Shown here: positions 1 to 62,753 of the stretch, piece by piece
How positions within the stretch are numbered: the first letter of the stretch is position 1
Layout: each line of letters begins with the position of its first letter
NCBI GenBank assembly: GCA_964569655.1
Contig: CAZMTN010000001.1
Location: forward strand, 139,395-203,394
DNA length: 64,000 nucleotides
Direction of reading: 5' to 3'
Source of the DNA: an uncultured Candidatus Saccharibacteria bacterium
GTDB taxonomy: Bacteria > Patescibacteriota > Minisyncoccia > Phycocordibacterales > Phycocordibacteraceae
Translations under genes and position numbers: made by a program
Notes under the pieces: generated by a model
Seen by the model: only the letters and a program-made list of their open reading frames with translations
Databases searched by the model: none
Told to the model about the DNA's origin: nothing

Positions 1-1459
1 ATGAGCATGTCGCCGCCAGCGATCTCGCACTTCGCCTCGATCTGGAGGCCGAACTCGCCTTCGGCCTTCACCTCGTTCACGTCGACGCGCGCCTGCTGAA
101 GGTTCACGATCTTGCCGCGCCCGAGCTCCTCATCCCGGCGCACGATCTTCACCTGGGCATCGAGCGCGATGGTGCCGCTCACGTGGCGGGCGCCGAGCGT
201 CTTCACCTTCCCGGTCTCGCTGAAGACTTTCAATACCTTCGCTTCGCCGAGGATCTCCTCCTTATCGACGATAGGCGCGCGCTCCTTGAGCACCTCCTCC
301 ACGCGCTCCTTGAGCTCGTAGATGATGGTGAAGGTCTCGATCGGGATGCCTGCGCGATCCGCTGATTCGCGCGCATTGGAGTCGGTGCCTACCGAGAAGG
401 CGATCACCATGCCGCCGCCCACCTGGGCGGTCTTCACGTCACCCTCGGATACGGCGCCGACGCCGGTCTCGATGATGCGGATAGAGGCATGCTCATGGGT
501 GATCTTCGCGAGCTCGTGCTTGATGGCCTCGATGGACCCCGTGACGTCCGCCTTGATGACGAGCGGCAGCACGGTCTCGCCGTCTACGGCCTCGTGCTTC
601 TCGCGGAGCTTCGCGCCTTCGAGCTCCTTAGCGGTCGCCACGAGCGCTTCTGCCTCCTTGCGTCCCTTAGCGGTCTCGAATGGGGTCCCGGCAGGCGGAA
701 GCTCGCTGAAGCCGGAGATGACGACCGGGGAAGACGGGTTTCCTTGCGGGATGCGCTTCCCGAGGAAGTTCTCGATGAAGCGCACCGGCGCCGACGCCTT
801 TCCGGCAACGACGTACGAACCTGTCTGCAGCGTGCCGTTCTTCACGATGAGCGTTGCCGAGTTGCCTCGCTTCGGATCCTGGGTGGATTCGAGGATGAAT
901 CCGCTCGCTTCGGCATCCGGGTCTGCCGTGAGCTCCGCGAGGTCCGCCGTGAGGAGCACGAGGTCGAGGAGCTCGGGCACGCCTTCGCCGGACTTCGAGG
1001 ATACCGGCGTGAACGCGATATCGCCGCCGAGCCCTTCGAGGTACACGCCCGCCTCAAGGAGCGAGATCTTCGCCTTCTCTACGTCTGCGCCGTTCTTATC
1101 CATCTTCGTGAACGCGACAACGAACGGCACCTTCGCCTCCTGGATCGCGGAGAGCGCCTCGAGGGTCTGCGGCTTTACGCCCTCATCCGCCGCGACGACG
1201 AGGATGGCGACGTCTGCCGCAGTGGCGCCGCGGGTGCGGAGCGCGCGGAAGGCTTCGTGGCCGGGGGTATCGAGGAAGGTGATCTGGCGCTCCTTGCCTT
1301 CGTGCTCGTGCACCGCCTCGTATGCGGAGACGTGCTGGGTGATGCCGCCGGCTTCGCCTGCGGTGACGTTGGCCTTACGGATGAAATCCAGGAGGGAAGA
1401 CTTGCCGTGATCGATGTGGCCCATGACGGCAACGATGGGCGGGCGGGGAGTGAGAGCCA
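1..1459 (-). CDS. infB: Translation initiation factor IF-2, short form beginning at the G-domain; partial, C-terminus lies beyond the window start
   Basis: Minus-strand reading frame from the ATG at 1459 to the window edge. Translation begins MALTPRPPIVAVMGHIDHGKSSLLD, then GxxxxGK[ST], DTPGH and NKMD GTPase motifs and the IF-2 C-terminal domains. There is no long N-terminal extension. Confidence 0.9.
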
Positions 1460-14999: not shown

Positions 15000-15007
15000 C
15001 CAATGAG

Positions 15008-45251: not shown

Positions 45252-45310
45252 TCAGACAGACATTGCTATAATCCATACCGTACCTGCCCCGCCACGGGCA
45301 GGAATCCCTC

Positions 45311-47950: not shown

Positions 47951-47997
47951 AAAAACCGACGCCAGACGGGAAGAACCATATGGTTCTTCCCCGTACG

Positions 47998-48297: not shown

Positions 48298-48365
48298 GCC
48301 TGGCCTCCTTTCCGGTCAGAGCCCAGCCACATGGCTGTGGCGCAATCCTAATCTGAACCGGCCTT

Positions 48366-48394
48366 TTGTCAACAGACGCCAAAAACGGCATACT
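48366..48394 (+). promoter_or_regulatory. Putative uvrC promoter TTGTCA-N17-CATACT; ATG 6 nt downstream (leaderless)
   Basis: Read directly. Confidence 0.35.
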
Positions 48395-48400
48395 TTGCAT

Positions 48401-49669: not shown

Positions 49670-49670
49670 C

Positions 49671-49679
49671 TGGTATACT
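49671..49679 (+). promoter_or_regulatory. Extended -10 TGgTATACT, 6 nt upstream of the ddl ATG (leaderless)
   Basis: Read directly. Confidence 0.35.
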
Positions 49680-49685
49680 TTCCGC

Positions 49686-50651
49686 ATGAAAGGAACGGTC
49701 GTCGGCGTGCTTCGAGGGGGCCCTTCGCGCGAGCATGACGTATCGCTCAAGACCGGAGCGGCGATGGCGAAGAACCTATCTTCGGACCACTACCATATCC
49801 GCGACATCTATATCGACCGGAACGGCGTCTGGCATGAGCGCGGACGCGCCACCACGCCTTCCCGAGCACTTTCCTCGGTGGACGTGGTGCTTATCGGCCT
49901 GCATGGGGAATACGGGGAAGACGGCGAGGTACAGAAGGTGCTCGAGCGCCACGGCATCCCGTACGCGGGCTCGGATTCCCTCGGTTCCTTCCTCGCGATG
50001 CATAAGTTCCTCGCGAAGCAGCGCGCACGGGAGGCGGGACTCAAGGTAGCCCGCGACGTGTTCATCGAGCGGGCAGAAGATGCCGAGGTACGCGTCCAGG
50101 AGGCGGTGCGTTCCTTCCTCCAACCGGTGGTGGTGAAGCCGGTGCGCTGGGGTTCGTCGGTCGGCGTGTCGCTTCTGTCCGGATTCGCTCCGGTTAATGC
50201 GGCAGTGCAGAAGCTGTTTGCCGAAGGGGCGGAGGGCGTCCTCATCGAAGAGTTCATCCGCGGTACGGAGGCCACGGCGGGCGTCGTGGAGCACCTCAGG
50301 AACGAGGAGCTCTACGGGCTCCCGGTAGTGGAGATCATCCCGCCAGAGACCGATTTCTTCTCGTATGACGCCAAGTACTCCGGCGCGACCCAGGAGATCG
50401 TGCCGGGCAGGTTCCATCGGGACATCGCCCGGGAACTGTCCGAGGCGGCTAAGGTGATGCATCGGGAATTGGGTCTCCGGCACTACTCTCGCTCAGACTT
50501 CATCGTGTCTCCGCGCGGGATCTATTACCTCGAGACCAATACGCTCCCCGGCATGACGGAGCAGTCCCTCCTTCCGAAGTCCCTCGAATCCATAGGCGTA
50601 TCCTTCAAGGATTTCCTCTCGCACCTTATCCACCTAGCTACCAAGAAATGA
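49686..50651 (+). CDS. ddl: D-alanine--D-alanine ligase
   Basis: ATP-grasp: N-terminal GGPSREHDVSL, HGEYGEDG, C-terminal ETNTLPGMT. Start at MKGTVVGVLRGG; the ORF-track start 49581 is upstream read-through. Confidence 0.85.
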   Translation: MKGTVVGVLRGGPSREHDVSLKTGAAMAKNLSSDHYHIRDIYIDRNGVWHERGRATTPSRALSSVDVVLIGLHGEYGEDGEVQKVLERHGIPYAGSDSLGSFLAMHKFLAKQRAREAGLKVARDVFIERAEDAEVRVQEAVRSFLQPVVVKPVRWGSSVGVSLLSGFAPVNAAVQKLFAEGAEGVLIEEFIRGTEATAGVVEHLRNEELYGLPVVEIIPPETDFFSYDAKYSGATQEIVPGRFHRDIARELSEAAKVMHRELGLRHYSRSDFIVSPRGIYYLETNTLPGMTEQSLLPKSLESIGVSFKDFLSHLIHLATKK

Positions 50652-50980
50652 CCGACCTCGCCGAGCAGAAGTGCGTCCCGTGCGAGGGTGGCTTCCCGCC
50701 GCTCAACCGCGGGGAGGCGGAAGACATGCTGGATAAGCTGTCCGGCTGGTCCCTGGCCCGCCAGGGCAAGGGGATCTATAAGGAGTACGCCTTCAAGGAC
50801 TTCAAGGAGGCGCTCGCGTTCGTGAATAAGGTTGGGGAGGTCGCTGAGGGAGAAGGGCATCACCCGGACGTGAGCCTGTCCTGGGGCAAGGTGGGGGTGT
50901 CCCTCACTACCCACGCCATGCAGGGCCTCTCCGTGAATGACTTCATCGTAGCCGCCAAGATAGATGCGCTTGAAAAATAA
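50648..50980 (+). CDS. Pterin-4a-carbinolamine dehydratase
   Basis: PCD motif EGHHPD and the [KR]-x-[YF]-x-F-x-[DN]-[FY] region (YAFKDFKEALAFV); 110 aa. Confidence 0.75.
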   Translation: MTDLAEQKCVPCEGGFPPLNRGEAEDMLDKLSGWSLARQGKGIYKEYAFKDFKEALAFVNKVGEVAEGEGHHPDVSLSWGKVGVSLTTHAMQGLSVNDFIVAAKIDALEK

Positions 50981-51001
50981 ATAGTGTATATTGTTCCGCA
51001 C

Positions 51002-51074
51002 GGGCCGTTAGCTCAGTTGGTAGAGCATCTCATTTGCAATGAGAGGGTCGCAGGTTCGAATCCTGTACGGTCCA
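51002..51074 (+). tRNA. tRNA-Ala (anticodon TGC)
   Basis: GGGCCGTTAGCTCAGTTGGTAGAGCATCTCATTTGCAATGAGAGGGTCGCAGGTTCGAATCCTGTACGGTCCA folds with the G3-U70-type acceptor, anticodon loop TTTGCAA and T-loop TTCGAAT. Confidence 0.85.
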
Positions 51075-52551
51075 CCCCGGTAGACAGTTCAGTCGAAAAT
51101 ACTGATTCCGTCGCAAAGATAAAGGAAGTTTCAGAAGTTTTAAATTCTTTCCCGTCAAAGACGACGCCAGAAGGAAATTGGAACTTTTGAAGCTTAGTCT
51201 TCGTTTCGTGCCTAGCCTGCAGCCAGACCTTCCCTGGCGCAGAAATATAGTCACGTGCAAGCGTGAGGGCTCCTGCAACGTCTACTCGCCCATGCTTCAA
51301 GGAGACCTGCTTTTCATACAGGGCAAAGGTTTCTTTCTCCATACGAGCAAGCTGGCTCTTAAGAACGTCATCGCTGACTACACCACTGAGGTTCTTGTCG
51401 ATAAGAACGGCCTGACGGTCCTGAAGCCCAGTAAGGCGAACCTCAATTTCTTCTAGGGCTTTCTGCTGGCCTTTAGTAGCTTCAGCAAACTTCTTACGCA
51501 CCAAACTCTCAAGCTTGTTCAGATGTTCCTTGCTGGGTGCAAAGCGGTTCATAAAGTCCGCAAAGTCCTGGTGCACGATCTCGCTACGCATATCGCTTTT
51601 CTTGACTCCTACGAAGCGATAGTAGGGATACTTACCTTTAGCGAAACTACCGGTAAGCTTCTTTCCTTCAGAGTTTTCAATGAAACGACGCAAAGGGAAG
51701 TCCGGATTATCACGCTTATAAACTGAACTCTTCTTACCCTTCTTGAGAAGTACGCACTGTACCTGATTAAACAACTCCACAGAGACGATCGGTTCAAAGC
51801 TGCCCTTATTTGTCTCACCAAATTTCTCGATAACCCCCATATATACCTTGTTCGTCAGCATCTTGTAGAAGTACGATCGTGCCGGGGACTTCCCATTTTT
51901 AAGACACAGTCCGCGATCGCTCATCATCTTCCAAACGCCGTCAATTGGGTGCAGTGAGGTAGCTACAGTCTCAAAAGACTGAAGAACTAGGGCACTCATA
52001 TCTCCGAGCTCAAGGTTCGGCTTCCCACCTACTACGCCATTCCTAAAGCCAACAGGTGCAGGCCAGACATAACGACCTTCCCGCACTGCATCCTTCATAC
52101 CGCCTCCACAGCGTTCACTACGCATGTCGTTATCAAACTGCGCTACGTTAGCGAGAGTGTTCTCAATAAACTTACCTGCAGCTGTATCGTCAAATTGCTC
52201 CGTTGCAGAAAGAAGTTCAATCTTATACCGCTTAAGCAATGCCCGGATTGTTGCGTGATCTTCTGTACTACGTGCAAGGCGATCAACCTTGTACACAAGC
52301 ACAGCACTGATATTGTTTTTCCTGATCGTGCAGAACTTGAGCATCTCTTGCAATTGAGTCCGGTTGGCGGTCTTTGCGCTCTCACCGGCTTCTACGAATA
52401 CGTGAATCACATCAAAGCCCTTTCGTACCGCAAACTCACGACAAATGCGCTCTTGAGAAACCAGACTATTTCCCTCATCAGCCTGGGCACTGGTTGAGAC
52501 ACGGACGTAAACTACGGCACGCGGCTTACTACTCCCATGAACATTGTTCAT
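51013..52551 (-). CDS. Large serine recombinase (resolvase-type catalytic domain, recombinase domain and Zn-ribbon/coiled-coil region)
   Basis: N-terminal AVVYVRVSTSAQ (catalytic Ser), VLVYKVDRLARS, recombinase-domain and C-terminal features; 512 aa. The last ~20 codons are read from the antisense of tRNA-Ala. Confidence 0.8.
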   Translation of the reverse strand: MNNVHGSSKPRAVVYVRVSTSAQADEGNSLVSQERICREFAVRKGFDVIHVFVEAGESAKTANRTQLQEMLKFCTIRKNNISAVLVYKVDRLARSTEDHATIRALLKRYKIELLSATEQFDDTAAGKFIENTLANVAQFDNDMRSERCGGGMKDAVREGRYVWPAPVGFRNGVVGGKPNLELGDMSALVLQSFETVATSLHPIDGVWKMMSDRGLCLKNGKSPARSYFYKMLTNKVYMGVIEKFGETNKGSFEPIVSVELFNQVQCVLLKKGKKSSVYKRDNPDFPLRRFIENSEGKKLTGSFAKGKYPYYRFVGVKKSDMRSEIVHQDFADFMNRFAPSKEHLNKLESLVRKKFAEATKGQQKALEEIEVRLTGLQDRQAVLIDKNLSGVVSDDVLKSQLARMEKETFALYEKQVSLKHGRVDVAGALTLARDYISAPGKVWLQARHETKTKLQKFQFPSGVVFDGKEFKTSETSFIFATESVFSTELSTGVDRTGFEPATLSLQMRCSTN

Positions 52552-53211
52552 AAGTATTTCCTTTATTCTTGTACATCCTAACTAGTTGTCCCGCGTAGCG
52601 GGCTCCTGGGGCTTATTTAGCTTCCCTCAAGTATGCCTCCACAAGGATTTCGGCGAGATATGTCAGCGCGGCATCTGCAGGGCGCTCCAAATTATTACTG
52701 CTCACGAGAGTTCGTGTGTCTGATCCAACCTTCGTATTAAGCGTAGCGGACCCTTCTTTCTGTCAGGTTCCTATCCGTAACGGTAGTAGGAAAACCAAAC
52801 AACGGTACGCTGCGGCCAAAGCAAATATGGAATACGGCGGCGAGAGGTGAGACACCTTAGCTGGTAAGCAGGGGGAATAAAACGCCACCCTGGTTACCTG
52901 CCGGTGCTTATTACAGCTGACAATAGCATAAAAAGTTGTGAAATTCAATCCGATTATGTGGAAGCATTTTGTGTCGACCTTGGGAAGGACTATACTGAGA
53001 TTGTTCTACAACTGAATAAAAGGCCCGCGAGGGTCAGGACCTAACCCGCCAGCTTCGGCTATCGGTATGGTCTAAAAAAGTCCTGCAAAGACACAATGAA
53101 CCCGTCATGGGGGAGTCTTTGCAGGCCTAGAGGGAAACTTCTAGCCGGCCCGTCCGGGACCCGTGGCGGGTTCATTGTGCGCCCGTCCGGATTACTCGTC
53201 ATGAGAGTCCT
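52552..53211. ncRNA. 660-bp non-coding, highly structured region (candidate large ncRNA or recombination/regulatory region); unclassified
   Basis: No ORF over 60 aa in a gene-dense genome. Hairpin CTGGTAAGCAGGG...CCCTGGTTACC at ~52880..52920. Interleaved inverted repeats at 53080..53195: GTCCTGCAAAGAC/GTCTTTGCAGGCC and CACAATGAACCCG/CGGGTTCATTGTG, a pseudoknot-type topology; direct repeats GCCCGTCCGG occur twice. Confidence 0.25.
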
Positions 53212-53505
53212 ATGACTAAGGCACTCCGTATTTCGGTTATCGTACTCGCTATTGTTCTTGCTGCGTTCGTTGCTCTCGTTCTTGCGTACATGGTTACGCC
53301 ACCGTTCTTTATTTCATTCGGGCAGCACTACATTGGTGCACCAGATATATTCTCCGTATCTGATTTCTATCGTTGTGACCCTAACGGTGCAGACGACTGC
53401 GTACTCACAAGAGAATCTCTCTTTGCGGCGGTTGCGAACGACCCGCACATCGCAAACTGGTGGCCAGTTAACGGATCATTCATCCTGCCGGAGGAATATG
53501 ACTAA
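53212..53505 (+). CDS. Hypothetical membrane-anchored protein (97 aa)
   Basis: TM ISVIVLAIVLAAFVALVLAYMV; overlaps the next gene as ATGACTAA (translational coupling). Confidence 0.4.
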   Translation: MTKALRISVIVLAIVLAAFVALVLAYMVTPPFFISFGQHYIGAPDIFSVSDFYRCDPNGADDCVLTRESLFAAVANDPHIANWWPVNGSFILPEEYD

Positions 53506-53875
53506 GCGCATTGGGGATGAAGGGTGGCTGGATGAGCCACTAGCTAATCTCGACCTAAGCGAGCAAGTATCGCCTACGAATCCCGATGAAGAGCGCTATG
53601 GGGCAGTAATGGATGGCTTCGAACTGCCTAACATCACCCACGACAAGGAAGTCAGTCCACTCGGCACGTTCGTAATCCGTGCACTTATCGCAGTAGTTAC
53701 AGTCTTCTCCTTGTGGGCAGTGTTCGTCGGCCTCACTACATCCGATGGTGAAGGGTACACACCCACCGGTGCCGGATGCTGTGTGTACTGCTCAGTCGGT
53801 AAAGCATGCGGTAACACCTGCATCGAGCGAAGTGACGCGTGTCATGTTGGGTCAGGCTGCGCCTGCGACCAATGA
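53498..53875 (+). CDS. Hypothetical single-pass membrane protein with C-terminal Cys-rich knot (9 Cys in 33 aa)
   Basis: TM FVIRALIAVVTVFSLWAVFVGL, then GAGCCVYCSVGKACGNTCIERSDACHVGSGCACDQ. Start at the internal Met at 53498; the ORF-track start 53252 overlaps the previous gene. Confidence 0.4.
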   Translation: MTKRIGDEGWLDEPLANLDLSEQVSPTNPDEERYGAVMDGFELPNITHDKEVSPLGTFVIRALIAVVTVFSLWAVFVGLTTSDGEGYTPTGAGCCVYCSVGKACGNTCIERSDACHVGSGCACDQ

Positions 53876-54169
53876 CGAGCTTCCTCACCCATACGGGGGT
53901 GGTTTCCTTGGGTCCTCCGCAAACCGAATAGGAGGCTCGGGGAGAAAGGCCATGAAGTGAAATCACCAGGAAATGGCTTATTTCCTTATTCTTTAGTATC
54001 GCCTAGAGAGAAAGGCTTGACCTCGCCAACGGGAGGCATATACTTCAACTACATTTCGTACGGTTTCGGTTCGAAGGTATCAAAATACCTTGAAAGTACA
54101 GGCCATTTCACGAAGTGAGCAAACGGCGGAAGTGAAGCTGAATTATTTACTAAGTAGCATACGACATAT

Positions 54170-54736
54170 ATGAATCCAGATGAATTGAAAGAGCGCATTC
54201 GTCTTGCAGAAGAAGCGGTTGCCGGCATGACCGATGAGAACTTGAAACGAATCGCCTTTGAAACGTTACTCACACATTCTCTCGGGGGAGAGCAGTCATC
54301 GAACACCAAAAAGAGCAGCACCCGTTCTTCTAAGAAAAAGTCGGGTGCAGCACGACCGAAGTCCGCTAAACCGACAACGGAAAAGAAAGTTAGCTCAATC
54401 GAACTTGATGTTGAGCAGTTGAAGAGCCTGAAGAGCTACTACGATGATCATGCTCCTTCCGGTACTGAAGAATCGGTATTCACTCTCGCCTTCTTCATCC
54501 ATGAGGTGCTCAAGCAGAAGGTCTTCCACGAAGCGGATGTATTTGGTCTCTACACCAGCTTGATGCCTCTTAAGCCTACGCAGAAGCCCCCAGTATTAAC
54601 TCTCGATACAGTAAAGAGGGCAATGACATGGCTTGTTGCACCTAGTCGCCGTAAGCAGTGGCTCAAGTTCGTTGACGGTGGTTACGAGATTAGCTCGCAC
54701 GGTATCCACCACATGACTTATAAGGATGAAGTGTAA
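54170..54736 (+). CDS. Hypothetical protein, paralog 1: N-terminal helix, Ser/Lys-rich disordered linker, C-terminal winged-helix-like domain
   Basis: C-terminal FTLAFFIHEVLKQ...LTLDTVKRAMTWLV...KFVDGGYEISSHG has the helix-helix-helix-wing pattern (K.GWI ... GGY.IS..G) of wHTH domains. Confidence 0.45.
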   Translation: MNPDELKERIRLAEEAVAGMTDENLKRIAFETLLTHSLGGEQSSNTKKSSTRSSKKKSGAARPKSAKPTTEKKVSSIELDVEQLKSLKSYYDDHAPSGTEESVFTLAFFIHEVLKQKVFHEADVFGLYTSLMPLKPTQKPPVLTLDTVKRAMTWLVAPSRRKQWLKFVDGGYEISSHGIHHMTYKDEV

Positions 54737-54753
54737 CTCTAAGCTCAACAACC

Positions 54754-55338
54754 ATGGCGAAACTTACGGTTGATCTAAAGAACGGTTTGCTCGAAGTGGA
54801 AGGAGACGAATCCTTCGTAAAGGAGGTCTACGACGACTACAAGGAAGCTCTCGCAATGCTTACGGCACAGGTCCTCACGGCAAAGGAGGTGCACACACCT
54901 GAACTTGGAACAGGTTCATCAAAGAAAACTGGCTCAACTAATCCAAAGCCTACCGGCGCACAGACACACTCAAAAGGTGTAACACGTGAGGAGCCTACAT
55001 TTGTTCCCGACCTGAATCTTAATCCGGGAACCAAGCCTTCTCTCAAAGAAATCTACGCAAAGCTTTTGCCTGGAAAATCTACTGCAATGGAGAAGAACGT
55101 TGTGTTCGTTCACTATCTTCAGCGCACACTTGGGATTACTGGTATCGGTCTCAACCATATCTACACCTGCTACAAGGAAGTGGGAGAGAAGGTTCCTGTC
55201 GCGTTGGCGCAGAGCTTGAGGGATACTGTAAAAAAGGGTGCATGGATCGACATCACCGATGTGACGAACATCCATATGACGGTTCGAGGCGATAACTTCG
55301 TCGAGCACGAGTTGCCTCATGGATCCGAGGATAAATAA
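54754..55338 (+). CDS. Hypothetical protein, paralog 2 of 54170..54736 (same architecture)
   Basis: Linker GSSKKTGSTNPKPTG; C-terminal VFVHYLQRTLG...LAQSLRDTVKKGAWIDITDV...VRGDNF parallels paralog 1. Confidence 0.45.
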   Translation: MAKLTVDLKNGLLEVEGDESFVKEVYDDYKEALAMLTAQVLTAKEVHTPELGTGSSKKTGSTNPKPTGAQTHSKGVTREEPTFVPDLNLNPGTKPSLKEIYAKLLPGKSTAMEKNVVFVHYLQRTLGITGIGLNHIYTCYKEVGEKVPVALAQSLRDTVKKGAWIDITDVTNIHMTVRGDNFVEHELPHGSEDK

Positions 55339-55352
55339 GACTCGCAATTCAT

Positions 55353-56108
55353 ATGACACGTGAAGAACTGGACCTATTCGCTAGCCGCTTTGACGGTTTC
55401 GCTGCACTCTCGGCAGTGAAGCAAATCGACTACTTGGCCTACTACTTACTTGCTCAAAAGGGGAAGGAAAGCATTACCGCAGGCGATCTCGAAGAGTGCT
55501 TTAAACTTCTCGACCTGCGACCGTATGCGCGCATGTCGGTACACCTTTCGGAATCTGCCTCAAAGAAGGATGGTCGATTCATTAAGCACTCTAAGGGGTA
55601 CAGGTTGGAGCGCGCCGCGCTAGAAGAGATTCGTGCAATCGTTGACGCGGAGCCAGAGCGAGAGAAGGTATCTGTTCATCTCACTGACCTTGTACCGAAG
55701 ATCAGTGAGGCGCAGGAACGGGTTTTTCTTGAAGAGGCTATTCGCAGTTTCCGCGTAAAGGCATTTCGTGCAGCAGTCGTTATGACTTGGATTCTCACAA
55801 TGGAGCACCTGCAGAGGTTCACTTACGGGAATAAGCTGAGCGAGTTCAATGCGGCCATCGCTGCGCACCCAGATAACAAGCGCATGAAAGCAATCACTGC
55901 GTATGATGACTTCGCTGACCTAAAGGAATCAAGGGTCATTGAGCTCATGCGGAGCGCTGGCGTTATCTCTCCCGACGTAAGAAGGATTCTCGATGAGAAA
56001 CTCGGTATTCGAAACAGTGCGGGCCATCCATCCGGAGTTATTCTGTCTCCCCATAAGGCCACGGAGTTCATCCTCGACCTTGTTGAGAACGTTATCCTGA
56101 AGTACTAG
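55353..56108 (+). CDS. Hypothetical protein: N-terminal winged-helix-like domain related to the two upstream paralogs, plus a C-terminal helical domain with an Rx4H (HEPN-like) motif
   Basis: N-terminal DYLAYYLLAQKGKESITAGDLEECFKLL...KKDGRFIKHSKGYRLERAA (wing K.GRFI...GY.L). C-terminal EKLGIRNSAGHPSGV carries R-x4-H inside a predicted all-helical domain, as in HEPN RNases. Terminator hairpin follows. Confidence 0.4.
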   Translation: MTREELDLFASRFDGFAALSAVKQIDYLAYYLLAQKGKESITAGDLEECFKLLDLRPYARMSVHLSESASKKDGRFIKHSKGYRLERAALEEIRAIVDAEPEREKVSVHLTDLVPKISEAQERVFLEEAIRSFRVKAFRAAVVMTWILTMEHLQRFTYGNKLSEFNAAIAAHPDNKRMKAITAYDDFADLKESRVIELMRSAGVISPDVRRILDEKLGIRNSAGHPSGVILSPHKATEFILDLVENVILKY

Positions 56109-56200
56109 TTGGCTGAACACGCAGAATTGTCTCCAACGACTGAATCTCCTTGCAAAAGGAGTTCCAAAACTCCATCCCAAGGTCCACATTCGTTCACTTG

Positions 56201-56226
56201 AAGGCACGAAAGTGCCTTTTTGTGTA
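56201..56226 (+). terminator. Terminator hairpin AAGGCAC-GAAA-GTGCCTT plus TTTGTGTAT
   Basis: 7-bp stem with GNRA loop and T-rich tail after the 55353..56108 gene. Confidence 0.45.
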
Positions 56227-56481
56227 TAGTTTCCAACGCTTTTCGCAGGTTCTAATATTTCTGGTGGACAGTTTAGCGAATCTACCCCGTCTCGTAGGAT
56301 TTCTATAGGCTTCTCGACTAGGAACGAGAGGTGGCCCTGGTCGAATATGTGCTCGGTACCGAGGGCTGCAAGGATGGCACGTCTCTTTTCCAGGTCGGGT
56401 ATTAAGGCCAGTGGCCTCCAGCCGATAGTATCAAAATATCTAAAGTTTGGATATTGACTTCTTAGATAGACCATTTAGTAT

Positions 56482-56703
56482 ATGAAGAAGTCAATCCATA
56501 CAAAGGAGTACGCGGTCTTTGTCGAGAGATTGAAGACAGCGCGCCTTGAAGCGGGTCTGACGCAGGTGCAGGTGGCCAAGAAATTGAAACGGCCACAGTC
56601 CCATGTTTCAAATGTAGAGTCAGGGCAACAGAGGCTAGATGTTATTGAACTCCAACGTTTTGCGAAGATTTACAGGAAGGACATCAACTATTTTCTAAAA
56701 TAA
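56482..56703 (+). CDS. XRE-family (Cro/C1-type) helix-turn-helix transcriptional regulator
   Basis: 73 aa; LTQVQVAKKLKRPQSHVSNVESGQQ is a canonical HTH_3; first gene of a tightly packed 9-gene + strand run. Confidence 0.7.
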   Translation: MKKSIHTKEYAVFVERLKTARLEAGLTQVQVAKKLKRPQSHVSNVESGQQRLDVIELQRFAKIYRKDINYFLK

Positions 56704-56707
56704 TTCC

Positions 56708-57229
56708 ATGGTTGAGAACTTGAAAAATGTTGGCTGGACTATTCTGGGAATAGGTTTTTTCTTGCTTCTCATTTTGATAGCAGCTTTGATGCTTAACGGC
56801 GCAGTTTGGGTTGGTGAGCACGTAATTGGCTGGCTTTTTAGTGCCGCATGGATAGTATTCGCCATCAACCTTTTTATCCTTCTACCTCTCGGGCTGTTTA
56901 GGAAAACTGGCGTGTTTGGCGGAATTGCCATGTACTACTCATCGTTTGTATTCGGCTTAACGCTCTGGTTCCTAGGACTCTTGCTTACTTATTTTGCATG
57001 GGGATTTCTTGGAGTCATCGCTGGTCTTATCCTTGGCGGAGTTGGGGTTGTTCCAGTAGCAATGCTGGCCATGCTGTTCGACGGAGAATTCTTTACACTC
57101 GTTGTTCTTCTAGTCCTGACTGCTCTTACGTTCGGCACTAAATTCCTAGGTGTCGTTTTAGCGATGAGAGCAGAGGAAAAAACGAATCAGCTCCACACAG
57201 AAAGGCTGACAACTGAGACTCAGATATGA
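56708..57229 (+). CDS. Hypothetical polytopic membrane protein (173 aa, ~5 TM)
   Basis: Hydrophobic helices throughout; 4 nt after the XRE stop. Confidence 0.45.
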   Translation: MVENLKNVGWTILGIGFFLLLILIAALMLNGAVWVGEHVIGWLFSAAWIVFAINLFILLPLGLFRKTGVFGGIAMYYSSFVFGLTLWFLGLLLTYFAWGFLGVIAGLILGGVGVVPVAMLAMLFDGEFFTLVVLLVLTALTFGTKFLGVVLAMRAEEKTNQLHTERLTTETQI

Positions 57230-57531
57230 CCTACCTCAAACCACTCCTGATTGTCGCGGGAATCATGCTTCTCCTCGCTATCCCTCCCATGTGGCCGTAT
57301 GTCTACTACCAACTCATGCGTATAGTCGTATGTATTGCGGCGGCGTATGGAGCATACACAGCTTTTCAAACAGAGCGTACTGGTTGGGTATGGGTACTTG
57401 GCGCAGTAGCCATCCTTTTTAACCCAATCGCTCCTATCCATCTCGATAAGGAGACGTGGGTTGTGCCCGACATCATTGGGGCAATCATCATGTTCGTGGC
57501 AGCGGTAAAATTGAAGCATCATGGAAAATAA
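57226..57531 (+). CDS. Hypothetical membrane protein (101 aa, 3 TM)
   Basis: Overlaps the upstream stop by 4 nt. Confidence 0.45.
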   Translation: MTYLKPLLIVAGIMLLLAIPPMWPYVYYQLMRIVVCIAAAYGAYTAFQTERTGWVWVLGAVAILFNPIAPIHLDKETWVVPDIIGAIIMFVAAVKLKHHGK

Positions 57532-58114
57532 AGGAAGCATCATTTGGTGGGTCATCATTCTGGCGGTACTTGCGGCTATCGTGTACTTCAACTTCTTTGA
57601 CAAAGATTCGAAAGAACAAGATTCATCGGAAGCGGTTACGGAAGAAGTCTCTGAAGGTAGCTTGATAGCCGACTCTCTAGCAGAAAAATATGGCGCTACG
57701 GTAATAGGCAGAGAAAGTCTCTCGTTTACCATTCAGGCGCAAGATCAGTTGTTGAGCGGTAAGCCAGTGGTGTTCGATGCTTATCTTGATGACGTATACC
57801 GTCGTGATGATAAGACCTACGTGCGCTTCCAGTCATATGACGAAACTGACTATATCCTCGAACTAGAATGCGACCCACAAATGGTCGAGGATAAAGTGCT
57901 CTCGCAGACGGATACCACGGACGATTGGCTTTTCTGGCTCTATAACGAGTATGTCGTTGTTGCAAACATAACCGAGGTATCGAAGCCAGTTATTGCACTT
58001 AATGCAGTAGCGGGCTACGACGAAGGAGATGCAGAAATAGAAGTTGAAACCAGCTCAGTCTTCAGCGCAAAAGGAACGTGCGTTGATATGGAGCATGTGG
58101 TTATAGGCGATTAA
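57521..58114 (+). CDS. Hypothetical single-pass membrane protein with acidic extracytoplasmic domain (197 aa)
   Basis: TM IIWWVIILAVLAAIVYF; overlaps the upstream gene by 11 nt. Confidence 0.45.
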   Translation: MENKGSIIWWVIILAVLAAIVYFNFFDKDSKEQDSSEAVTEEVSEGSLIADSLAEKYGATVIGRESLSFTIQAQDQLLSGKPVVFDAYLDDVYRRDDKTYVRFQSYDETDYILELECDPQMVEDKVLSQTDTTDDWLFWLYNEYVVVANITEVSKPVIALNAVAGYDEGDAEIEVETSSVFSAKGTCVDMEHVVIGD

Positions 58115-58116
58115 CC

Positions 58117-58320
58117 ATGAATACCAAATTCACAAAAATCTTGGTCATAGTTGCGGTTGCGGCTCTTGCGCTTGGTTCTTTAACCTACTTCACTCGGACG
58201 GTATTCGACATCGGCTGTGCGAATACAGAATTGGTGCAGGGCAACAAATGGAAACGCCATTTCCTCGGCATGAATTGCTGGTACTGGGAGGGCAATATCG
58301 ATCTCCAAGCGGAACTATAG
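58117..58320 (+). CDS. Small membrane-anchored protein (67 aa) with two Cys and a Trp-rich tail
   Basis: TM ILVIVAVAALALGSLTYF; ...CANTELVQGNKWKRHFLGMNCWYWEG. Confidence 0.35.
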   Translation: MNTKFTKILVIVAVAALALGSLTYFTRTVFDIGCANTELVQGNKWKRHFLGMNCWYWEGNIDLQAEL

Positions 58321-58324
58321 AGAT

Positions 58325-58843
58325 ATGAATAAAACAACTGCAACAACCAAAGTGCTCGTAGCCGCTGTCGTTATTCTGGCCGTAGTAGCACTTTGGCAGT
58401 TCATGGAGAAGAAAGGTCTTGAGTACGAACTCGTGCTACAACAGTCAATTCCTCACGTTGACCTAACCAATACTCAGTTCGTAGACGGAGGACGTTTCTA
58501 TGCATATATAACAGGTTTCGTAGTCTTCAAAAATGAGGAAGACCAGCCGAAAGATATGCGCCAGTTCTATATGATTGAGCCGACAGCAAGTCCTAATGTT
58601 TATACCCTCAAGGAGATTTTTGAGATGAACTTGCTACCGCCCAAAGTATTTGACCCTGTCATGCTTGATGTCGCACAAGAAACAAGTAGCATGCTCGTAC
58701 TCGTGGATGAGAGTGGAAATACATGGACAATAAACAAACTCACGAAAGAGGTGCAAATGCTAGACTCAACTGGCGACGCAACCTACCTCATCACAAGCAA
58801 CATAGAGTACCAGGACTTTATGCAAAACTTCCTTACTAGGTAA
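58325..58843 (+). CDS. Hypothetical membrane-anchored protein (172 aa)
   Basis: Signal-anchor VLVAAVVILAVVALWQF. Confidence 0.45.
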   Translation: MNKTTATTKVLVAAVVILAVVALWQFMEKKGLEYELVLQQSIPHVDLTNTQFVDGGRFYAYITGFVVFKNEEDQPKDMRQFYMIEPTASPNVYTLKEIFEMNLLPPKVFDPVMLDVAQETSSMLVLVDESGNTWTINKLTKEVQMLDSTGDATYLITSNIEYQDFMQNFLTR

Positions 58844-58848
58844 CGAAA

Positions 58849-59391
58849 GTGCGTATGAGGCTATATAGATTCAGTCCAGTCAAAAATCAAGCGACCCTCA
58901 TTGAAGCCATTCAACACATTCATGCTGAGTGCTTCAGACTCTGTAAGGAATCTGTGGGCGAATATCTACCTGTAGCAGGAAATGTAGGTTTCTTCTGTCA
59001 TTACAATGATGAGTACGACGTTCTTACTGCGCTTCGTGGGCAATTGACTGAATCGTCTGACAATATCAATCAAAAATACTTTCGTCTCTATGAGCCCATC
59101 GTCATTCCTGCTATAGACGATATTCCTGAGACAATCTATACCCATCTTTACATTCGTAAGCCCGATATTTATCGAGCACAGGTAGGCGATATCGATTTTG
59201 TAATGGAGCCAGAGCGGTATGCGGAAATGAAGAAGCGTTTAGAGAGCGGCGAAGTCATCTCTGGTGCTCGTATTTTCCCACGAGGCGATTTGGATATGAT
59301 TGAACTCTATAATCCTGATGTTGATGCACTAGGTTATATCAGCGTGAATGAGATGACTGAGAAAGTCCGGATTAAGACCAATTTTCAATAA
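58849..59391 (+). CDS. Hypothetical soluble protein (180 aa)
   Basis: No recognised motifs; part of the operon. Confidence 0.45.
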   Translation: MRMRLYRFSPVKNQATLIEAIQHIHAECFRLCKESVGEYLPVAGNVGFFCHYNDEYDVLTALRGQLTESSDNINQKYFRLYEPIVIPAIDDIPETIYTHLYIRKPDIYRAQVGDIDFVMEPERYAEMKKRLESGEVISGARIFPRGDLDMIELYNPDVDALGYISVNEMTEKVRIKTNFQ

Positions 59392-59392
59392 C

Positions 59393-59839
59393 ATGGACTA
59401 CCTGAAACGAGCAGTCGAGTTAGCAAAAATTTCACTTGAAGCTGGTGAGTTTCCTGCCGGCGCAGTGCTTGTTAGTAAGAGCGGAAAAGTCTATGAGAGC
59501 AAACCATCAGTGCCTTATAACCACGGCGAAACGATGGTCATAGATATGGCTATCGAATCAGAAGGGGAGCCACTCGTCGTTGGGGCAACTATATATGCTT
59601 CCATGCAGCCTTGCCTCATGTGTTCCTCAAAGATGTACTGGGCTGGTATTGAAAATGCCCACTTTGTGATTCCGAAGAAGAATGTTCGAGCGGATTACGC
59701 TTATGAAAATGAGTTGGATACGACGGCAGTGGCATCAAATTTCTTCAAACCAATTACAATGACCCACCATTCTGAACTACTAGATGAGGCGATGAGTGCA
59801 TATGTAGCATGGGTAAATAAGATTGAAGACCATGGATAG
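59393..59839 (+). CDS. CDA-fold nucleoside/nucleotide deaminase (TadA/guanine-deaminase-like)
   Basis: Zn-binding H(G)E ... PCxxC: NHGETMVIDMA and MQPCLMCSSKM; N-terminal AGEFPAGAVLV typical of the family. Confidence 0.65.
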   Translation: MDYLKRAVELAKISLEAGEFPAGAVLVSKSGKVYESKPSVPYNHGETMVIDMAIESEGEPLVVGATIYASMQPCLMCSSKMYWAGIENAHFVIPKKNVRADYAYENELDTTAVASNFFKPITMTHHSELLDEAMSAYVAWVNKIEDHG

Positions 59840-60581
59840 TGTTTCAATCCCTAATTCCAGGGGTCGCAAGATAGCAGCGGTCATTCATTATTCACAGGGA
59901 AATAAAAGGCTCGCTATTCTTTGTCCTGGCTATTTAGATACTAAGGACTACGCTCATCTTGTAGACCTTGCGAACAAATTTGCAGAGCGTGGATACACCA
60001 CTGTACGCTTCGACCCTTCTGGAACCTGGGAAAGTGAAGGTCCGATATCTGAGTATCTAACTTCTCAGTATCTTGATGATATTAAGAGTGTTTTGGAATA
60101 TATGCTTGCTAAGGATTCATATACTCAAGTCCTACTTGGTGGTCACAGTCGAGGTGGTCAGGTTTCGCTACTGTATGCTGCTCGCGACCCACGTATCACG
60201 GAAGTAGTAGGTATCATGCCTTCGCATGGGCCAGTAGAAGGTTCTCGTCGTACTGAATGGGAGGCTACGGGAGTAAAGGAGTCTGATAGAGATATTCCTG
60301 GGAGTGAAGAGCGACGACAGTTTGCTGTTCCATTTCAGCATGTGCTTGATCGCGACCAATTTGATGCACTGGGAGATATGCCGAACATTCACGTGCCAGT
60401 ATATTTATTTGCTGGAGAATTAGATGATTTGGTGCCTCCTGAAGAAGTCCAAGAACTTTTTGATGCTGCTAACGAACCTAAGAAGTATCTTGTGCTCAAG
60501 GGCATAGACCATGACTATCGCTTAAATCCTCTACAAGTGGAGGAGGTGAACAATCGTATTATTCAAACGATTGAACGTTAA
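59823..60581 (+). CDS. Alpha/beta-hydrolase fold protein
   Basis: Nucleophile elbow GGHSRGG, later acid/His region (DDLVPPEE ... IDHDY); overlaps the deaminase stop by ~17 nt. Confidence 0.65.
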   Translation: MKTMDSVSIPNSRGRKIAAVIHYSQGNKRLAILCPGYLDTKDYAHLVDLANKFAERGYTTVRFDPSGTWESEGPISEYLTSQYLDDIKSVLEYMLAKDSYTQVLLGGHSRGGQVSLLYAARDPRITEVVGIMPSHGPVEGSRRTEWEATGVKESDRDIPGSEERRQFAVPFQHVLDRDQFDALGDMPNIHVPVYLFAGELDDLVPPEEVQELFDAANEPKKYLVLKGIDHDYRLNPLQVEEVNNRIIQTIER

Positions 60582-60609
60582 TCATATACATATTGTGCAG
60601 GTAGTCGTA

Positions 60610-60860
60610 CGCATTCGTTAACTTGTTTAACATTGTTAACGTTTATTAACCGCAGTGCAAAGGAGGGTGGTTCTAATCTCGTATGAGGAGTGGCGCACGA
60701 GTGGTGAAAGTGGGTCTATTTCTTAGTCCAAGAATCAATACAGGGTAAAAAACGTATTGGCTTGCGTTCACTTATGGAAGTTCTAATATGATGAATGAGA
60801 CACCACATCAGAAGAGTTAACAGCCGCAAAGTCCTCAAAAAGCTTTGCGGCTGTTGCTAT
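60610..60860. promoter_or_regulatory. AT-rich segment with clustered GTTAAC/TTAAC repeats (60612..60650) and a perfect 13-bp palindrome AACAGCCGCAAAG-N11-CTTTGCGGCTGTT (60818..60856); candidate protein-binding or recombination site near the island's right end
   Basis: Repeats read directly (cattcGTTAACttGTTTAACattGTTAACgtttatTAAC). The palindrome has no T-tract on either strand, so it is not a classic terminator. Confidence 0.3.
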
Positions 60861-61160
60861 ATTGGCGGTTTGAAATCCCTCTTTAGGGTGGTAGGCCAAT
60901 TTTGCCTCAAAAAGGAAGTAGTACAGTCTCTGCTCATACGTGGCGTGGCGGGTAAGACCGAACTTGAGATGGTCGTACATACCGATGCTATTGAGCTGTT
61001 AAAGGGCGCGCCCAGGGACATGGTCTCAGATGCCTTCGGGATGCGTTAAGGCCCAGAACTAGGGACCTCTCAGGAAGTCTTCTTCGGCTGCTTTCAATAG
61101 TGCTTCGAATAGATTCTCGACCGAAAGTCCCAGTCGTGCCACGAGTCGATCCACCCGCTA

Positions 61161-61190
61161 TTGACAAGTGTGCTACTTCATAGGTATAAT
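61161..61190 (+). promoter_or_regulatory. Strong sigma70-like promoter TTGACA-N18-TATAAT upstream of 61222
   Basis: Consensus -35 and -10 hexamers, 18-nt spacer. Confidence 0.5.
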
Positions 61191-61221
61191 CCATTCAGGA
61201 TAGAAACTAGAGAGGTTTGAA

Positions 61222-61569
61222 ATGCCGCACATACGTGCACTCTTCATCGAAGACCAAGGCACCATAACTCTTCTTCTCGCGAAGAAGACGGAAATCCGAG
61301 AATCGGTGGCACGCCGTACCGGCTACACCATCGAAAAAGTCGCCTTCATTCCTGACATGGTGCCAGATTTTCTAGCGAATCTTTCGGACAACATGCTCCC
61401 GCTGGAATTCGTCATCGACGCGGGAACCCGGTGCCTGACTCCGGATACGCACTTCATGTGCGACGCTATCAAGGCTGATCTCGCCCAGATCGGCTTCGGA
61501 AGTCTCAACTTCGGTGTATGGCTTCGTGGCATGGCTGACAACAGCTATCACGAGCACAAACCTGGGTAA
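61222..61569 (+). CDS. Hypothetical protein (115 aa)
   Basis: ORF directly downstream of the consensus promoter. Confidence 0.45.
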   Translation: MPHIRALFIEDQGTITLLLAKKTEIRESVARRTGYTIEKVAFIPDMVPDFLANLSDNMLPLEFVIDAGTRCLTPDTHFMCDAIKADLAQIGFGSLNFGVWLRGMADNSYHEHKPG

Positions 61570-61713
61570 CGAAACGCCTCATTGGAGACGCCACATCGGC
61601 TCTCCGGTGGGGCGCTCTTTTTTATAGGCTGGCACTTTCCACACGAAGTCTTCATCATCGATAGTGCACACTGCCCGGACTCCCTAAGGGAGCCCTTCGC
61701 TTTAACTTCCCAT

Positions 61714-62028
61714 ATGAAAACTATCCCTGTCATCCTGCTCGGCCTGGTGCTCCTCGCGCCTATCCCGAGTTTCGCCTACTCGTCTTACGGATACTCGTAC
61801 AGTTACGGCTGGTCCGCTGACGATATCGAAGACCAGATCGAGGACATCGAGGACGAGATCGAAGAGCTCGAGGAACAGCTCCGTGAGCTCCGCGACCAGC
61901 TACGCGAGGCGGAGTCCCGCGACCGCCGCAGCCGAGGCCGCGACTACCGCGAGATCCGCTACGACTGCGTCTACGGCTGGCAGGCGAACTGCAGCAACCA
62001 TCAGTCCCGTACGAATTACTACTACTAG
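61714..62028 (+). CDS. Small secreted protein (104 aa) with Tyr/Ser/Gly repeat, highly acidic coiled-coil segment and C-terminal Cys pair
   Basis: Signal peptide MKTIPVILLGLVLLAPIPSFA; YSSYGYSYSYGWS; DDIEDQIEDIEDEIEELEEQLRELRDQLREAE; ...CVYGWQANC. Start at the internal Met; the ORF-track start is 61582. Confidence 0.4.
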   Translation: MKTIPVILLGLVLLAPIPSFAYSSYGYSYSYGWSADDIEDQIEDIEDEIEELEEQLRELRDQLREAESRDRRSRGRDYREIRYDCVYGWQANCSNHQSRTNYYY

Positions 62029-62101
62029 CCAGCTATTTGCTCCGCCTGGCGGCATGCTATACGCTTAGCCCAGAAATTGATCCCTTGAAAGGAGGGCAGT
62101 C

Positions 62102-62656
62102 ATGACAATGTTCCCGAAGCGGGATGCGTATTCATCTTGGAGGAATCCCGAACCCTTCACTGACATCCATATGGCGCTCGAGCTCCTTGCCGGGGACTCG
62201 ACGACCACGGAGCCTGTCTACCTCCAGCGATGCCAGGGTGAAGACTACGAATGGCAGATCGTCTTACCGTGGTATACCCACGGCAGCAGCGGCGGTGACC
62301 AGAGCGGATACGATTACTTCCAGATCGACCCGGTGCTGGCCAAGCAGCTGGTTGATGAACGTCTGGTCGCCATCCGGCGGATCCTGCACTTGGGATACAC
62401 CGAGGAGCGCAAGGACCAGTTCGTCATCGATCGCCTGGGAAAGAGGAAGGTAGAGGATTTCAAGAGGGAGATGCTGGCCAAGGCCGAAAGCATGCTGACT
62501 CCTGGCGTCCATACCAATCTCACCGCTGAGCCTGAACGTAGGGGCTCCTCGCGCGACCAGTGGCGCTATGGAGCCCTCCATTTCGACTTCAAAATGCCCC
62601 TGGGCGGCATCTGCCGCGTCTACCCCGAAGAAGGGAGACTCATCGTCCCCGAATAG
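62102..62656 (+). CDS. Hypothetical protein (184 aa)
   Basis: Good AAGGAGGG Shine-Dalgarno upstream; GC typical of the host. Confidence 0.5.
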   Translation: MTMFPKRDAYSSWRNPEPFTDIHMALELLAGDSTTTEPVYLQRCQGEDYEWQIVLPWYTHGSSGGDQSGYDYFQIDPVLAKQLVDERLVAIRRILHLGYTEERKDQFVIDRLGKRKVEDFKREMLAKAESMLTPGVHTNLTAEPERRGSSRDQWRYGALHFDFKMPLGGICRVYPEEGRLIVPE

Positions 62657-62753
62657 GACGATAAAGCAGCCTGAATCCCGTGTAGAGCCTCGCGCTCGCG
62701 CGGGGTTCTTCATACTCGTAGCTCTTGGACGCATGGTATCCTGTTCTGAATCC

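Follow-up and report, generated by a model that had tools for sequence, protein, structure and literature searches.

The window analysed here, a 64,000-nucleotide stretch of contig CAZMTN010000001.1, contains a tRNA-Ala(UGC) gene that is followed directly by about 10 kb of DNA of lowered GC content and overlapped in antisense by the gene for a large serine recombinase (LSR) of 512 residues. ARAGORN calls tRNA-Ala(tgc) at 51002-51076, with the discriminator A at 51074, in agreement with the 51002..51074 of the initial annotation, and reading of the sequence reveals the G3:U70 identity pair of tRNA-Ala. To the left lie genes for UvrB, UvrA, UvrC, D-Ala-D-Ala ligase (ddl) and pterin-4a-carbinolamine dehydratase (PCD). 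The GC content is 0.608 in the left flank (40000-51001), 0.493, 0.448 and 0.506 in the parts of the block, 0.563 in 61155-62753 and 0.609 beyond 62754, where an aminotransferase gene starts. The block had been described as reaching to ~61.2 kb, and this holds (GC 0.45-0.50 against 0.61, with recovery at ~61.15 kb); the composition is not uniform, and the first two elements defined below (E1, E2) and the flanks differ from one another.

The order ddl-(PCD)-tRNA-Ala(UGC) is kept in most of 80 ddl loci taken from GTDB species genomes, every one of which belongs to Patescibacteria (Kaiserbacteria, Paceibacterota and similar groups). The ddl-tRNA-Ala site looks like a general hotspot, because the DNA 3' of the tRNA in these loci is highly variable and often low in GC. 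The proposal that foreign DNA was integrated here by an LSR is supported. The stretch 51076-61154 is very probably a tandem array of three elements, E1, E2 and E3, inserted serially at the 3' end of tRNA-Ala(UGC) in a chromosome of Patescibacteria type (Kaiserbacteria/Paceibacterota-like). The attachment site of the element itself, attP, would lie inside the LSR reading frame, and the C-terminal tail of the enzyme would be swapped on integration. What the sequences themselves show is the anatomy of the array, the splitting of the recombinase frames, the pattern across the family and the existence of circular forms.

The recombinase gene and the first element

The features that define E1 are the following.

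51002-51074, plus strand: intact tRNA-Ala(UGC) gene (ARAGORN; G3:U70; ddl-(PCD)-tRNA-Ala(tgc) synteny)
51069-51075, no strand: core GGTCCAC of the left attachment site, attL, tRNA positions 68-74; identical to 56181-56187
51013-52551, minus strand: LSR of family 1 in its integrated form, 512 residues (Pfam Resolvase and Recombinase; homologues)
56092-56187, minus strand: right attachment site, attR, of E1, consisting of the core (56181-56187) and a P arm that encodes the native LSR tail, VDLGMEFWNSFCKEIQSLETILRVQPTSTSG, and its stop (tail model; restored frame)

The LSR contains a Resolvase domain (PF00239, E 1.3e-30, residues 12-161) with the catalytic motif YVRVSTSAQ, which carries the serine nucleophile, and a Recombinase domain (PF07508, residues 189-267) that scores 23.3 bits against a cut-off of 21.1 and is precomputed in most family-1 homologues. 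The nearest matches in the PDB are the catalytic domains of the resolvase family and of the TP901-1 integrase. No Pfam match to the zinc ribbon PF13408 was found in the window LSR, and family 1 lacks the cysteines that are usual for it. In an AlphaFold2 model of P0073 (P#### denotes homologous proteins and L### related loci), β-hairpins (292-325) and a long helical hairpin (344-423) occupy the place where a zinc ribbon with an embedded coiled coil would be expected.

As noted at the outset, the last 20 codons of the gene (VDRTGFEPATLSLQMRCSTN) come from the antisense of the tRNA. Together with the stop they are the reverse complement of tRNA positions ~12-74, the stop TGA being the antisense of the D-loop TCA, and the overlap amounts to 62 nt. 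Residues 1-492 are encoded by the element, and tRNA antisense begins at Val493-Asp494. When the free-form protein P0073 is aligned by tblastn, its residues 1-498 match 52551-51070, ending at VD.

The other half of this gene end is found about 5 kb away. A hidden Markov model (HMM) of eight native tails, none of them from the window, was run on the six-frame translation of the window and of 85 loci (~1.2 Mb). Apart from its own sources, the best match is L082 3568-3636 (E 3e-6) and the second is the best match of the window, 56187-56119 (E 1e-3); both abut the 7-bp core GGTCCAC. Between 51.0 and 62.8 kb the plus strand has two copies of this core only, at 51069-51075 and 56181-56187. Joining 51076 onwards to the sequence that ends at 56187 restores an LSR frame of 523 residues, ending in VDLGMEFWNSFCKEIQSLETILRVQPTSTSG. 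The stop of the native tail (56092-56094) lies in a convergent gene, 55353-56108, with an overlap of 17 nt. The native tail and the core copy at 56181-56187 therefore delimit E1 as 51076-56187, 5,112 bp. E1 would be the youngest element and is the sole one in the array with an intact LSR. The expectation that attL lies in or next to the tRNA is thereby borne out and narrowed to 7 bp.

Two kinds of C-terminus and circular forms

The search for family-1 LSRs gave >1,141 homologues, nearly all of 505-520 residues, and the best 120 of them were used for counting tails. A tRNA-antisense C-terminus is present in 97 (98 in a first count, before refinement). VD followed by the antisense of tRNA-Ala, in which [LV]Q (the antisense of T-TGC-A) marks the UGC anticodon, ends 95 of the 120; in a few, the antisense is that of a different tRNA. 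The same VD is followed in at least 9 of the 120 (~8%) by a conserved tail that is not tRNA-derived, for example VDPSIEFWNQFVKEAEYLKMILKEDKGR. The consensus of these native tails is a conserved helix, EFWNQF.KE.EYL..ILK. The VD codons, GTGGAC, are the reverse complement of tRNA positions 69-74 and are invariant among six attP or reconstructed attP sequences.

Four native-tail LSRs were traced to their contigs: P0073, P0061, P0095 and P0063. The contigs of the first three measure 10.3, 10.4 and 8.4 kb. The two ends of each are exact direct repeats, 24, 30 and 30 nt long, which is what circular molecules should show when assembled with k = 31. They have no tRNA gene and a GC content of 0.37-0.40, and one of them carries a Prim-Pol/AAA_25 replicase (L085). 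P0063 was considered as a further free form and rejected, since its locus (L083, JGI 3300045333 Ga0490007_000537, 10001-18088) is chromosomal and holds two intact family-1 elements in tandem. There the outer LSR overlaps tRNA-Ala, c[18015,18088], and the inner LSR, P0063, reads into the native tail of the outer element.

The closest homologue of the window LSR, P0002 (68% identity), is at the same ddl-tRNA-Ala site in another genome (L082, CAYHOH010000002.1). Its attL and attR share GGTCCAC, and its native tail, VDRDVEFWNQFCKEMERLQYILTPE and a stop, lies 7.9 kb from the LSR gene. The 7-bp core is common to attL and attR in these two independent elements, E1 and that of L082. The interval 3568-11479 of L082 contains genes with SduA_C (Shedu) and ThsB_TIR domains and a second, truncated resolvase gene (9477-9959).

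The simplest reading of these sequences is that attP lies inside the LSR frame at VD, that the circular form encodes the native tail and that integration replaces it. On this reading the LSR gene overlaps the tRNA because attP is inside the recombinase reading frame. The overlap is a family-wide property rather than a quirk of the window locus. A crossover ~100 codons inside the LSR gene, exchanging the C-terminal domain with a resident remnant, was considered and rejected: the end of the tRNA is precisely where similarity to versions lying beside a tRNA stops, and P0002 is similar up to VD. Further tblastn matches of the LSR C-terminus, in L016 and L032, are artefacts of neighbouring tRNAs or of the 20-residue tRNA tail.

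The second and third elements

Beyond E1, the ends of two more elements are recognizable.

56184-56396, minus strand: left end of E2, coding for the final ~70 residues of an LSR of family 2 (zinc-ribbon), with SSERMW up to the junction; ~470 codons on the N-terminal side have been lost (tblastn, P0126)
60716-60808, minus strand: attR of E2 with junction J2, CCACAT, at 60803-60808, and native tail W followed by CLIHHIRTSISERKPIRFLPCIDSWTKK and a stop at 60716-60718 (tblastn, P0126)
60804-60992, minus strand: left end of E3, with what is left of an LSR gene of a third type, reading FEDFAAVNSSDV up to the junction (tblastn, P0242)
61059-61156, minus strand: putative right attachment site of E3, at which the array would end, with junction J3 (TCCACCC) at 61150-61156; VD-RLVARLGLSVENLFEALLKAAEEDFLRGP and a stop, in frame with the E3 remnant

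P0126, a full-length member of family 2 with a native tail, was aligned to the whole window by tblastn. Its residues 471-541 match 56396-56184 (62% identity, E 1e-19) and residues 541-569 match 60805-60719 (55% identity, E 3.5e-5). The C-terminus of a single protein is therefore interrupted at Trp541, and its two pieces lie permuted, 4.6 kb apart, across E2. When they are joined, the alignment to P0126 472-569 is gap-free with 59% identity (E 2e-34). The split C-terminus at both ends therefore defines E2 as 56188-60806, with a recombinase reduced to its 3' end. Both pieces of the divided gene end survive in E2, and the catalytic portion is gone; E2 may be a relic resembling a cis-mobilisable element (CIME), with its att half-sites kept.

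Families 1 and 2 share only the common LSR fold, and the latter, with ~1,500 homologues, carries PF13408. The layout is the same, each family having its own conserved tail. Family 2 shows the same division into tRNA-antisense tails and native tails, the latter containing ..[VI]RT.., and its attP is at a Trp codon (TGG, the antisense of CCA). An intact family-2 LSR related to the E2 remnant, in L032, enters tRNA-Ala in another frame and ends in SERMWTVQDSNLRPSHCK and a stop. Behind it lie a fragment of the catalytic domain of a second recombinase (5082-5402) and an open reading frame (ORF) of 606 residues (5747-7567), close in size to the replicase of the circular relative L085.

Frames resembling family-2 native tails (E 0.003-0.04) also occur in L018 (13170-13313), L067 (13659-13760), L027 (12609-12671) and L024 (13646-13696 and 16829-16879). 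They lie a few kb downstream of tRNA-Ala, with no recombinase there, and are possibly attR relics of lost elements.

The E3 remnant corresponds to residues 120-176 of P0242, which match 60992-60804 (tblastn, E 4e-11). In L009, L011 and L063 a remnant of this type, together with its hairpin (see below), stands directly beside tRNA-Ala and is followed by ordinary genes. J3 is situated ~350 bp beyond J2; it coincides with the recovery of GC, has VD and 29 residues in frame on the minus strand and is followed immediately by a promoter. With moderate confidence, E3 is a stub, 60807-61154, and J3 the outer edge of the array. The TCCACCC motif had been proposed as a candidate attR core, at 61152-61159. 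It is plausible as the outer edge of the array; its position is 61150-61156, and it is not the attR of the intact recombinase.

The initial annotation had treated the whole block as one ~10-kb element; in that view it would be moved as a unit by the 512-residue LSR and extend from the tRNA to TCCACCC at ~61.15 kb. The low-GC block is indeed continuous, TCCACCC does stand where the GC content recovers, and attL joined to J3 also gives an open frame of 523 residues. However, the attR that belongs to the intact LSR lies at 56181-56187, with two older elements with truncated recombinases beyond it. The E1 junction J1 and J2 carry matched halves of split recombinase genes, three LSR types are represented, and at J3 the tail gives no match to the family-1 tail HMM and the P arm belongs to another LSR type. 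A single element is very unlikely, and so is a softer form of the idea, in which the array also excises as a composite by accretion-mobilisation.

An 11-mer, GTCCACCCCGG, at 62769-62779, composed of the tRNA end and four more bases, was tried as attR and set aside as a chance match, since it falls within the coding sequence of the aminotransferase, which is syntenic in L037 and L067. The DNA between J3 and this gene begins with the following feature.

61161-61569, plus strand: first DNA outside the array, presumed to be host or older, with a promoter and an ORF, 61222-61569 (promoter match; GC 0.563)

The promoter, a TTGACA-18-TATAAT σ70 type at 61161-61190, is the only 12/12 match in 50.9-61.4 kb. 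The segment 61155-62753 has three ORFs without Pfam families, of which only 62102-62656 has a relative (L059, 55%). This segment may be still older acquired DNA.

The crossover site

The junctions of E1, E2 and E3 each keep part of GGTCCAC, the 3' end of the tRNA, and share 4-7 bp, as is usual for serine recombinases. No long direct repeat bounding the block was found, in agreement with the initial annotation. A classical tRNA island would have a direct repeat of the tRNA 3' end, typically >=15 bp, at both ends, and the block has none. The B arm of the bacterial site, attB, is the T-arm plus the acceptor 3' strand of tRNA-Ala. It has the motif TTCGAAC, the T-loop, at +10..16 from the core, and the P arm has TTGGAAC at +15..21; T[GC]GAAC is present at +15..21 in six P arms. 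On the arm downstream of the tRNA in L082, TTCGAAT occupies the mirror position. A shift of 5 bp between attB and attP motifs has been described for a Listeria integrase (PMC3783163), and the T-loop TTCGAAC may be the recognition motif here, with the same shift.

A crossover deeper in the tRNA, with the element bringing a replacement for the tRNA 3' segment as in the islands of tyrosine integrases, would explain why the ORF overlaps 62 nt of the tRNA, and tRNA-Ala is too conserved among relatives to reveal a chimera. Against it, no tRNA fragment longer than the shared 4-7 bp is present at J1, J2 or J3, and the circular forms have no tRNA-like sequence, diverging from the tRNA right after GTGGAC. 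Such a crossover is extremely improbable.

With recombination at the tRNA end, the array would have been built as follows. Each newcomer would recombine within GGTCCAC (tRNA positions 68-74) and push older elements outward. The tRNA stays intact because recombination falls within GGTCCAC, at its extreme 3' end. The site of recombination would be ~30 codons from the end of the LSR frame, at Val-Asp (GTGGAC) in family 1 and at Trp in family 2. The enzyme encoded by the circular form would end in the conserved helix. On integration, the piece coding for the helix would move to attR, at the far end of the element, and the integrated gene would run into tRNA antisense until the D-loop supplied a stop. 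E2 and E3 have lost most of their recombinase genes and kept both end sequences. The two intact elements in tandem in L083 are a parallel for such serial displacement.

The main result is a family-wide design with attP in the recombinase ORF and a swap of the C-terminal helix, seen in two LSR families of Patescibacteria.

Possible function of the tail swap

The tail swap might change the activity, stability or directionality of the recombinase between its free and integrated states. Conservation of the native tail extends through ~24 codons, beyond a ~25-bp half-site. In the distal 16 codons the amino acid identity exceeds the identity at third codon positions in some pairs, most clearly in L082 versus L085 (0.56 vs 0.31). 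The AlphaFold2 model of P0073 (mean pLDDT 84) shows the usual LSR body, including a long coiled coil; VD falls in the low-confidence or disordered linker that follows (486-499), and the chain ends in a helix (499-523). The second family, which has only the common fold in common with the first, has the same design with a conserved tail of its own. All four observations speak against the swap being a neutral by-product of a compact layout, with attP in the last codons, both protein forms alike and the distal helix dispensable.

The neutral layout nevertheless has points in its favor. Serine integrases require only short att sites near the int gene, the first eight tail codons overlap the P arm, the tRNA-derived tails are fixed by the sequence of the tRNA and not by the needs of the protein, and many integrated copies look intact. 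Its probability is somewhat below even. That of a functional switch is put between about one chance in three and an even one.

A more specific proposal is that the helix swap is a built-in sensor of the integration state, with separate origins in the two LSR families of Patescibacteria. The free form would be competent for integration or regulated, and the tRNA-tailed form would differ in directionality, activity or stability. This is tentative and rather doubtful. The integrated gene is oriented head-on against an essential tRNA.

An additional candidate for control lies upstream of the LSR gene.

52628-52760, minus strand: shortened homologue of the small ORF that precedes family-1 LSR genes (weak similarity)

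A conserved ORF of 64-88 residues overlaps the LSR start in L083 (9805-10032), L085 (2667-2861), L086 (302-568) and L087 (1989-2201), with the motifs LCSN.VP.C and A.dYLA.ILvd.yL. The copy in the window ends in TLVSSNNLERPADAALTYLAEILVEAYLREAK and a stop, has no ATG and is only weakly similar (tblastn E 0.67). The small ORF is a candidate accessory factor, directionality factor or regulator.

Hairpins downstream of the crossover

Within the first 15-50 nt past the crossover, in the sense of the tRNA, most elements have a hairpin followed by T residues. The clearest case is in E2.

56200-56219, plus strand: terminator-like hairpin with an 8-bp stem, a GAAA loop and a T tail, 13 nt after J1, dual-coded with the LSR remnant

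This hairpin, GAAGGCAC-GAAA-GTGCCTTT followed by TTGTG, tops the list of terminator-like structures in 50.9-61.4 kb (fold z = -2.8). The E3 hairpin, at ~60820-60854, has a 12-bp stem (z = -5.0); for E3 and its relatives in L009, L011 and L063 z is -5 to -8, and for the hairpins of L083, L085, L086, L087 and L032 it is -3 to -5. The hairpins of E1 and L082 differ at a single, compensatory position in a 5-bp stem. As a hypothesis, hairpins in the recombinase 3' end replace the terminator of the tRNA, and selection for such a replacement could be the reason why relics keep just the last 50-100 LSR codons. In several loci with no recognizable element by the tRNA, among them L005, L020 and L023, a GC-rich inverted repeat that looks terminator-like by eye stands right after tRNA-Ala.

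Cargo and present state of the array

The cargo of the two larger elements is as follows.

53212-56108, plus strand: cargo of E1, four or five ORFs of unknown function: 53212-53505 or 53252-53875, 54170-54736, 54754-55338 and 55353-56108 (no Pfam matches)
56482-60581, plus strand: cargo of E2 (Pfam): XRE-type helix-turn-helix (HTH) protein, 56482-56703; membrane proteins, including DUF6804, 57226-57531; unknown ORFs; cytidine/dCMP-deaminase-like protein, 59393-59839; alpha/beta hydrolase, 59823-60581

Pfam, PHROGs and PADLOC recognized only the XRE-type HTH, DUF6804, cytidine-deaminase-like and alpha/beta hydrolase proteins, and the PADLOC matches to the E2 cargo were generic HTH ones. Virion or packaging genes, which a prophage would carry, were not found: there was no structural PHROG match among the 12 cargo ORFs of the window that were searched, nor among eight ORFs of the circular relatives, where primase-helicase alone was recognized. 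ORF 54170-54736 has a homologue in L046. ORF 55353-56108 matches phrog_27609 (3.4e-6), and IRNSAGH, an Rx4H motif in the C-terminal part of its translation, hints at a HEPN domain. At the equivalent place, convergent with the recombinase, the circular relatives have HEPN_AbiV, Hypoth_Ymh and SocA_Panacea genes. A sequence resembling an inverted tRNA 5' half, 52996-53027, was considered as an inversion site and dropped, its score being weak and at chance level.

From its sequence, the LSR is predicted to integrate by attP x attB recombination and to excise with a directionality factor; circular and integrated forms of the family both exist. The whole array could instead be a fossil, with E1 fixed and immobile and its recombinase kept or decaying. 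The missing replicase, the shortened upstream ORF without ATG and the failure to find an exact or close copy of the recombinase, or the attP pattern, elsewhere fit this possibility. The open 512-codon frame, RVSTSAQ and the intact attL, attR and tail frame argue against it, and a fossil is judged unlikely, although not strongly so. Exact-protein look-ups of the LSR and the hydrolase gave no other copy, and a single-protein scan of IMG/VR with the LSR gave no match. A look-up with PCD gave one 3.2-kb contig (L001, Logan SRR15237806_154085), which is identical to the left flank and ends inside the tRNA at window position ~51025. This end is consistent with a branch of the assembly graph at the conserved tRNA and is uninformative on excision.

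Several results weigh against a mobile three-element array with a meaningful tail swap. No empty-site genome, and no relative whose right flank matches the window, was found among the 80 ddl loci and the JGI metagenomes with the right-flank protein. The predicted attP of E1, or a restored attB junction, was not found by pattern search in the contigs and reads searched. E1 lacks the replicase seen in circular relatives, and its hairpin, like that of L082, is weak (z about 0). The crossover dinucleotide is localised to the core GGTCCAC only, two symmetry arguments differing by 1 bp. At the outer edge, TCCACCC alone is near chance expectation, because the same 7-mer recurs at 62770 inside the host aminotransferase gene (~0.7 are expected per 11.8 kb). 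The search for a free-form relative of the E3-type LSR found none and gave two fragments only, both tRNA-tailed; the J3 tail is a putative one. As for the tail, its first codons (EFWN) overlap the P-arm DNA motif and their conservation could be a constraint at the DNA level, and a difference in activity between the two protein forms is hypothetical.

Relation to known systems

Serine integrases are valued for a simple and strict directionality, generally attributed to the coiled coil together with a separate directionality factor. If the tail swap acts as proposed, rewriting of the enzyme's C-terminus by integration would be a new route to control of directionality or dosage, and directionality would be encoded in the position of attP and not only in a separate factor. 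These enzymes would supply tRNA-targeting integrases with a very conserved and predictable attB. The array would offer an initial view of the mechanism by which small self-replicating elements get into the very small genomes of Patescibacteria and accumulate there, at what looks like a hotspot that also carries defence genes (the Shedu- and Thoeris-like domains of L082). It would also provide a rule for annotation: a "recombinase family protein" that ends in ...VD[PR][TS]G[FL]EP... marks attL, and the matching tail marks attR.

The window LSR resembles the serine integrases of phiC31, Bxb1, A118, TP901-1 and SPbeta in its Resolvase and Recombinase domains and, judging by the model of P0073, in its long coiled coil. 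It also has short att sites with few identical bases at the crossover and probably, as far as the motif can be assigned, an attB motif 5 bp nearer to the center than that of attP. Unlike these enzymes, it has attP in its own frame, so that the C-terminus differs between the free and integrated forms, its target is the 3' end of a tRNA gene, and family 1 has no Pfam zinc-ribbon match. Mageeney et al. 2020 (PMC7192596) state that tRNA genes were not among the targets for which serine integrases are known. Full-text literature searches, whose coverage is incomplete, found no description of an attP-in-ORF layout for serine recombinases; an earlier description is possible.

The SSV-type ('suicidal') tyrosine integrases of archaeal viruses and plasmids have attP in the int ORF and tRNA targets, and integration splits their gene into two inactive parts (PMC7253208, PMC8371274). 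The window system is like them in having the recombination site in the integrase frame, a tRNA target and an integrase gene that is altered. Unlike them, it has a serine recombinase and not the tyrosine recombinase fold, and the LSR loses ~30 codons and gains ~20 tRNA-antisense codons while its catalytic and DNA-binding domains stay in one frame. In mycobacteriophages BPs and Brujita, which have a tyrosine integrase, attP lies in the repressor gene, and integration removes a C-terminal degradation tag and acts as a switch (PMC3694055). As in this integration-dependent immunity, attP here is inside a coding sequence and the C-terminus of a protein differs between the two forms; unlike it, the altered gene is that of the recombinase itself and no tag-like sequence is evident.

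As an array, the locus recalls the accretion of integrative and conjugative elements (ICE) and CIMEs in Streptococcus, where an autonomous element is accompanied by att-flanked relics that have no working recombinase and can be mobilised in cis. Arrays at tRNA sites are also known, such as those of tycheposons (10.1101/2020.12.28.424599). Serial insertion at one tRNA site and relics without a working recombinase are common to these arrays and that of the window. The type of recombinase, the junction identity of 4-7 bp and the recombinase 3' end retained by each relic set the latter apart. The window enzyme is a member of the large serine recombinases, and its arrangement belongs to neither the SSV-type nor the mycobacteriophage system.

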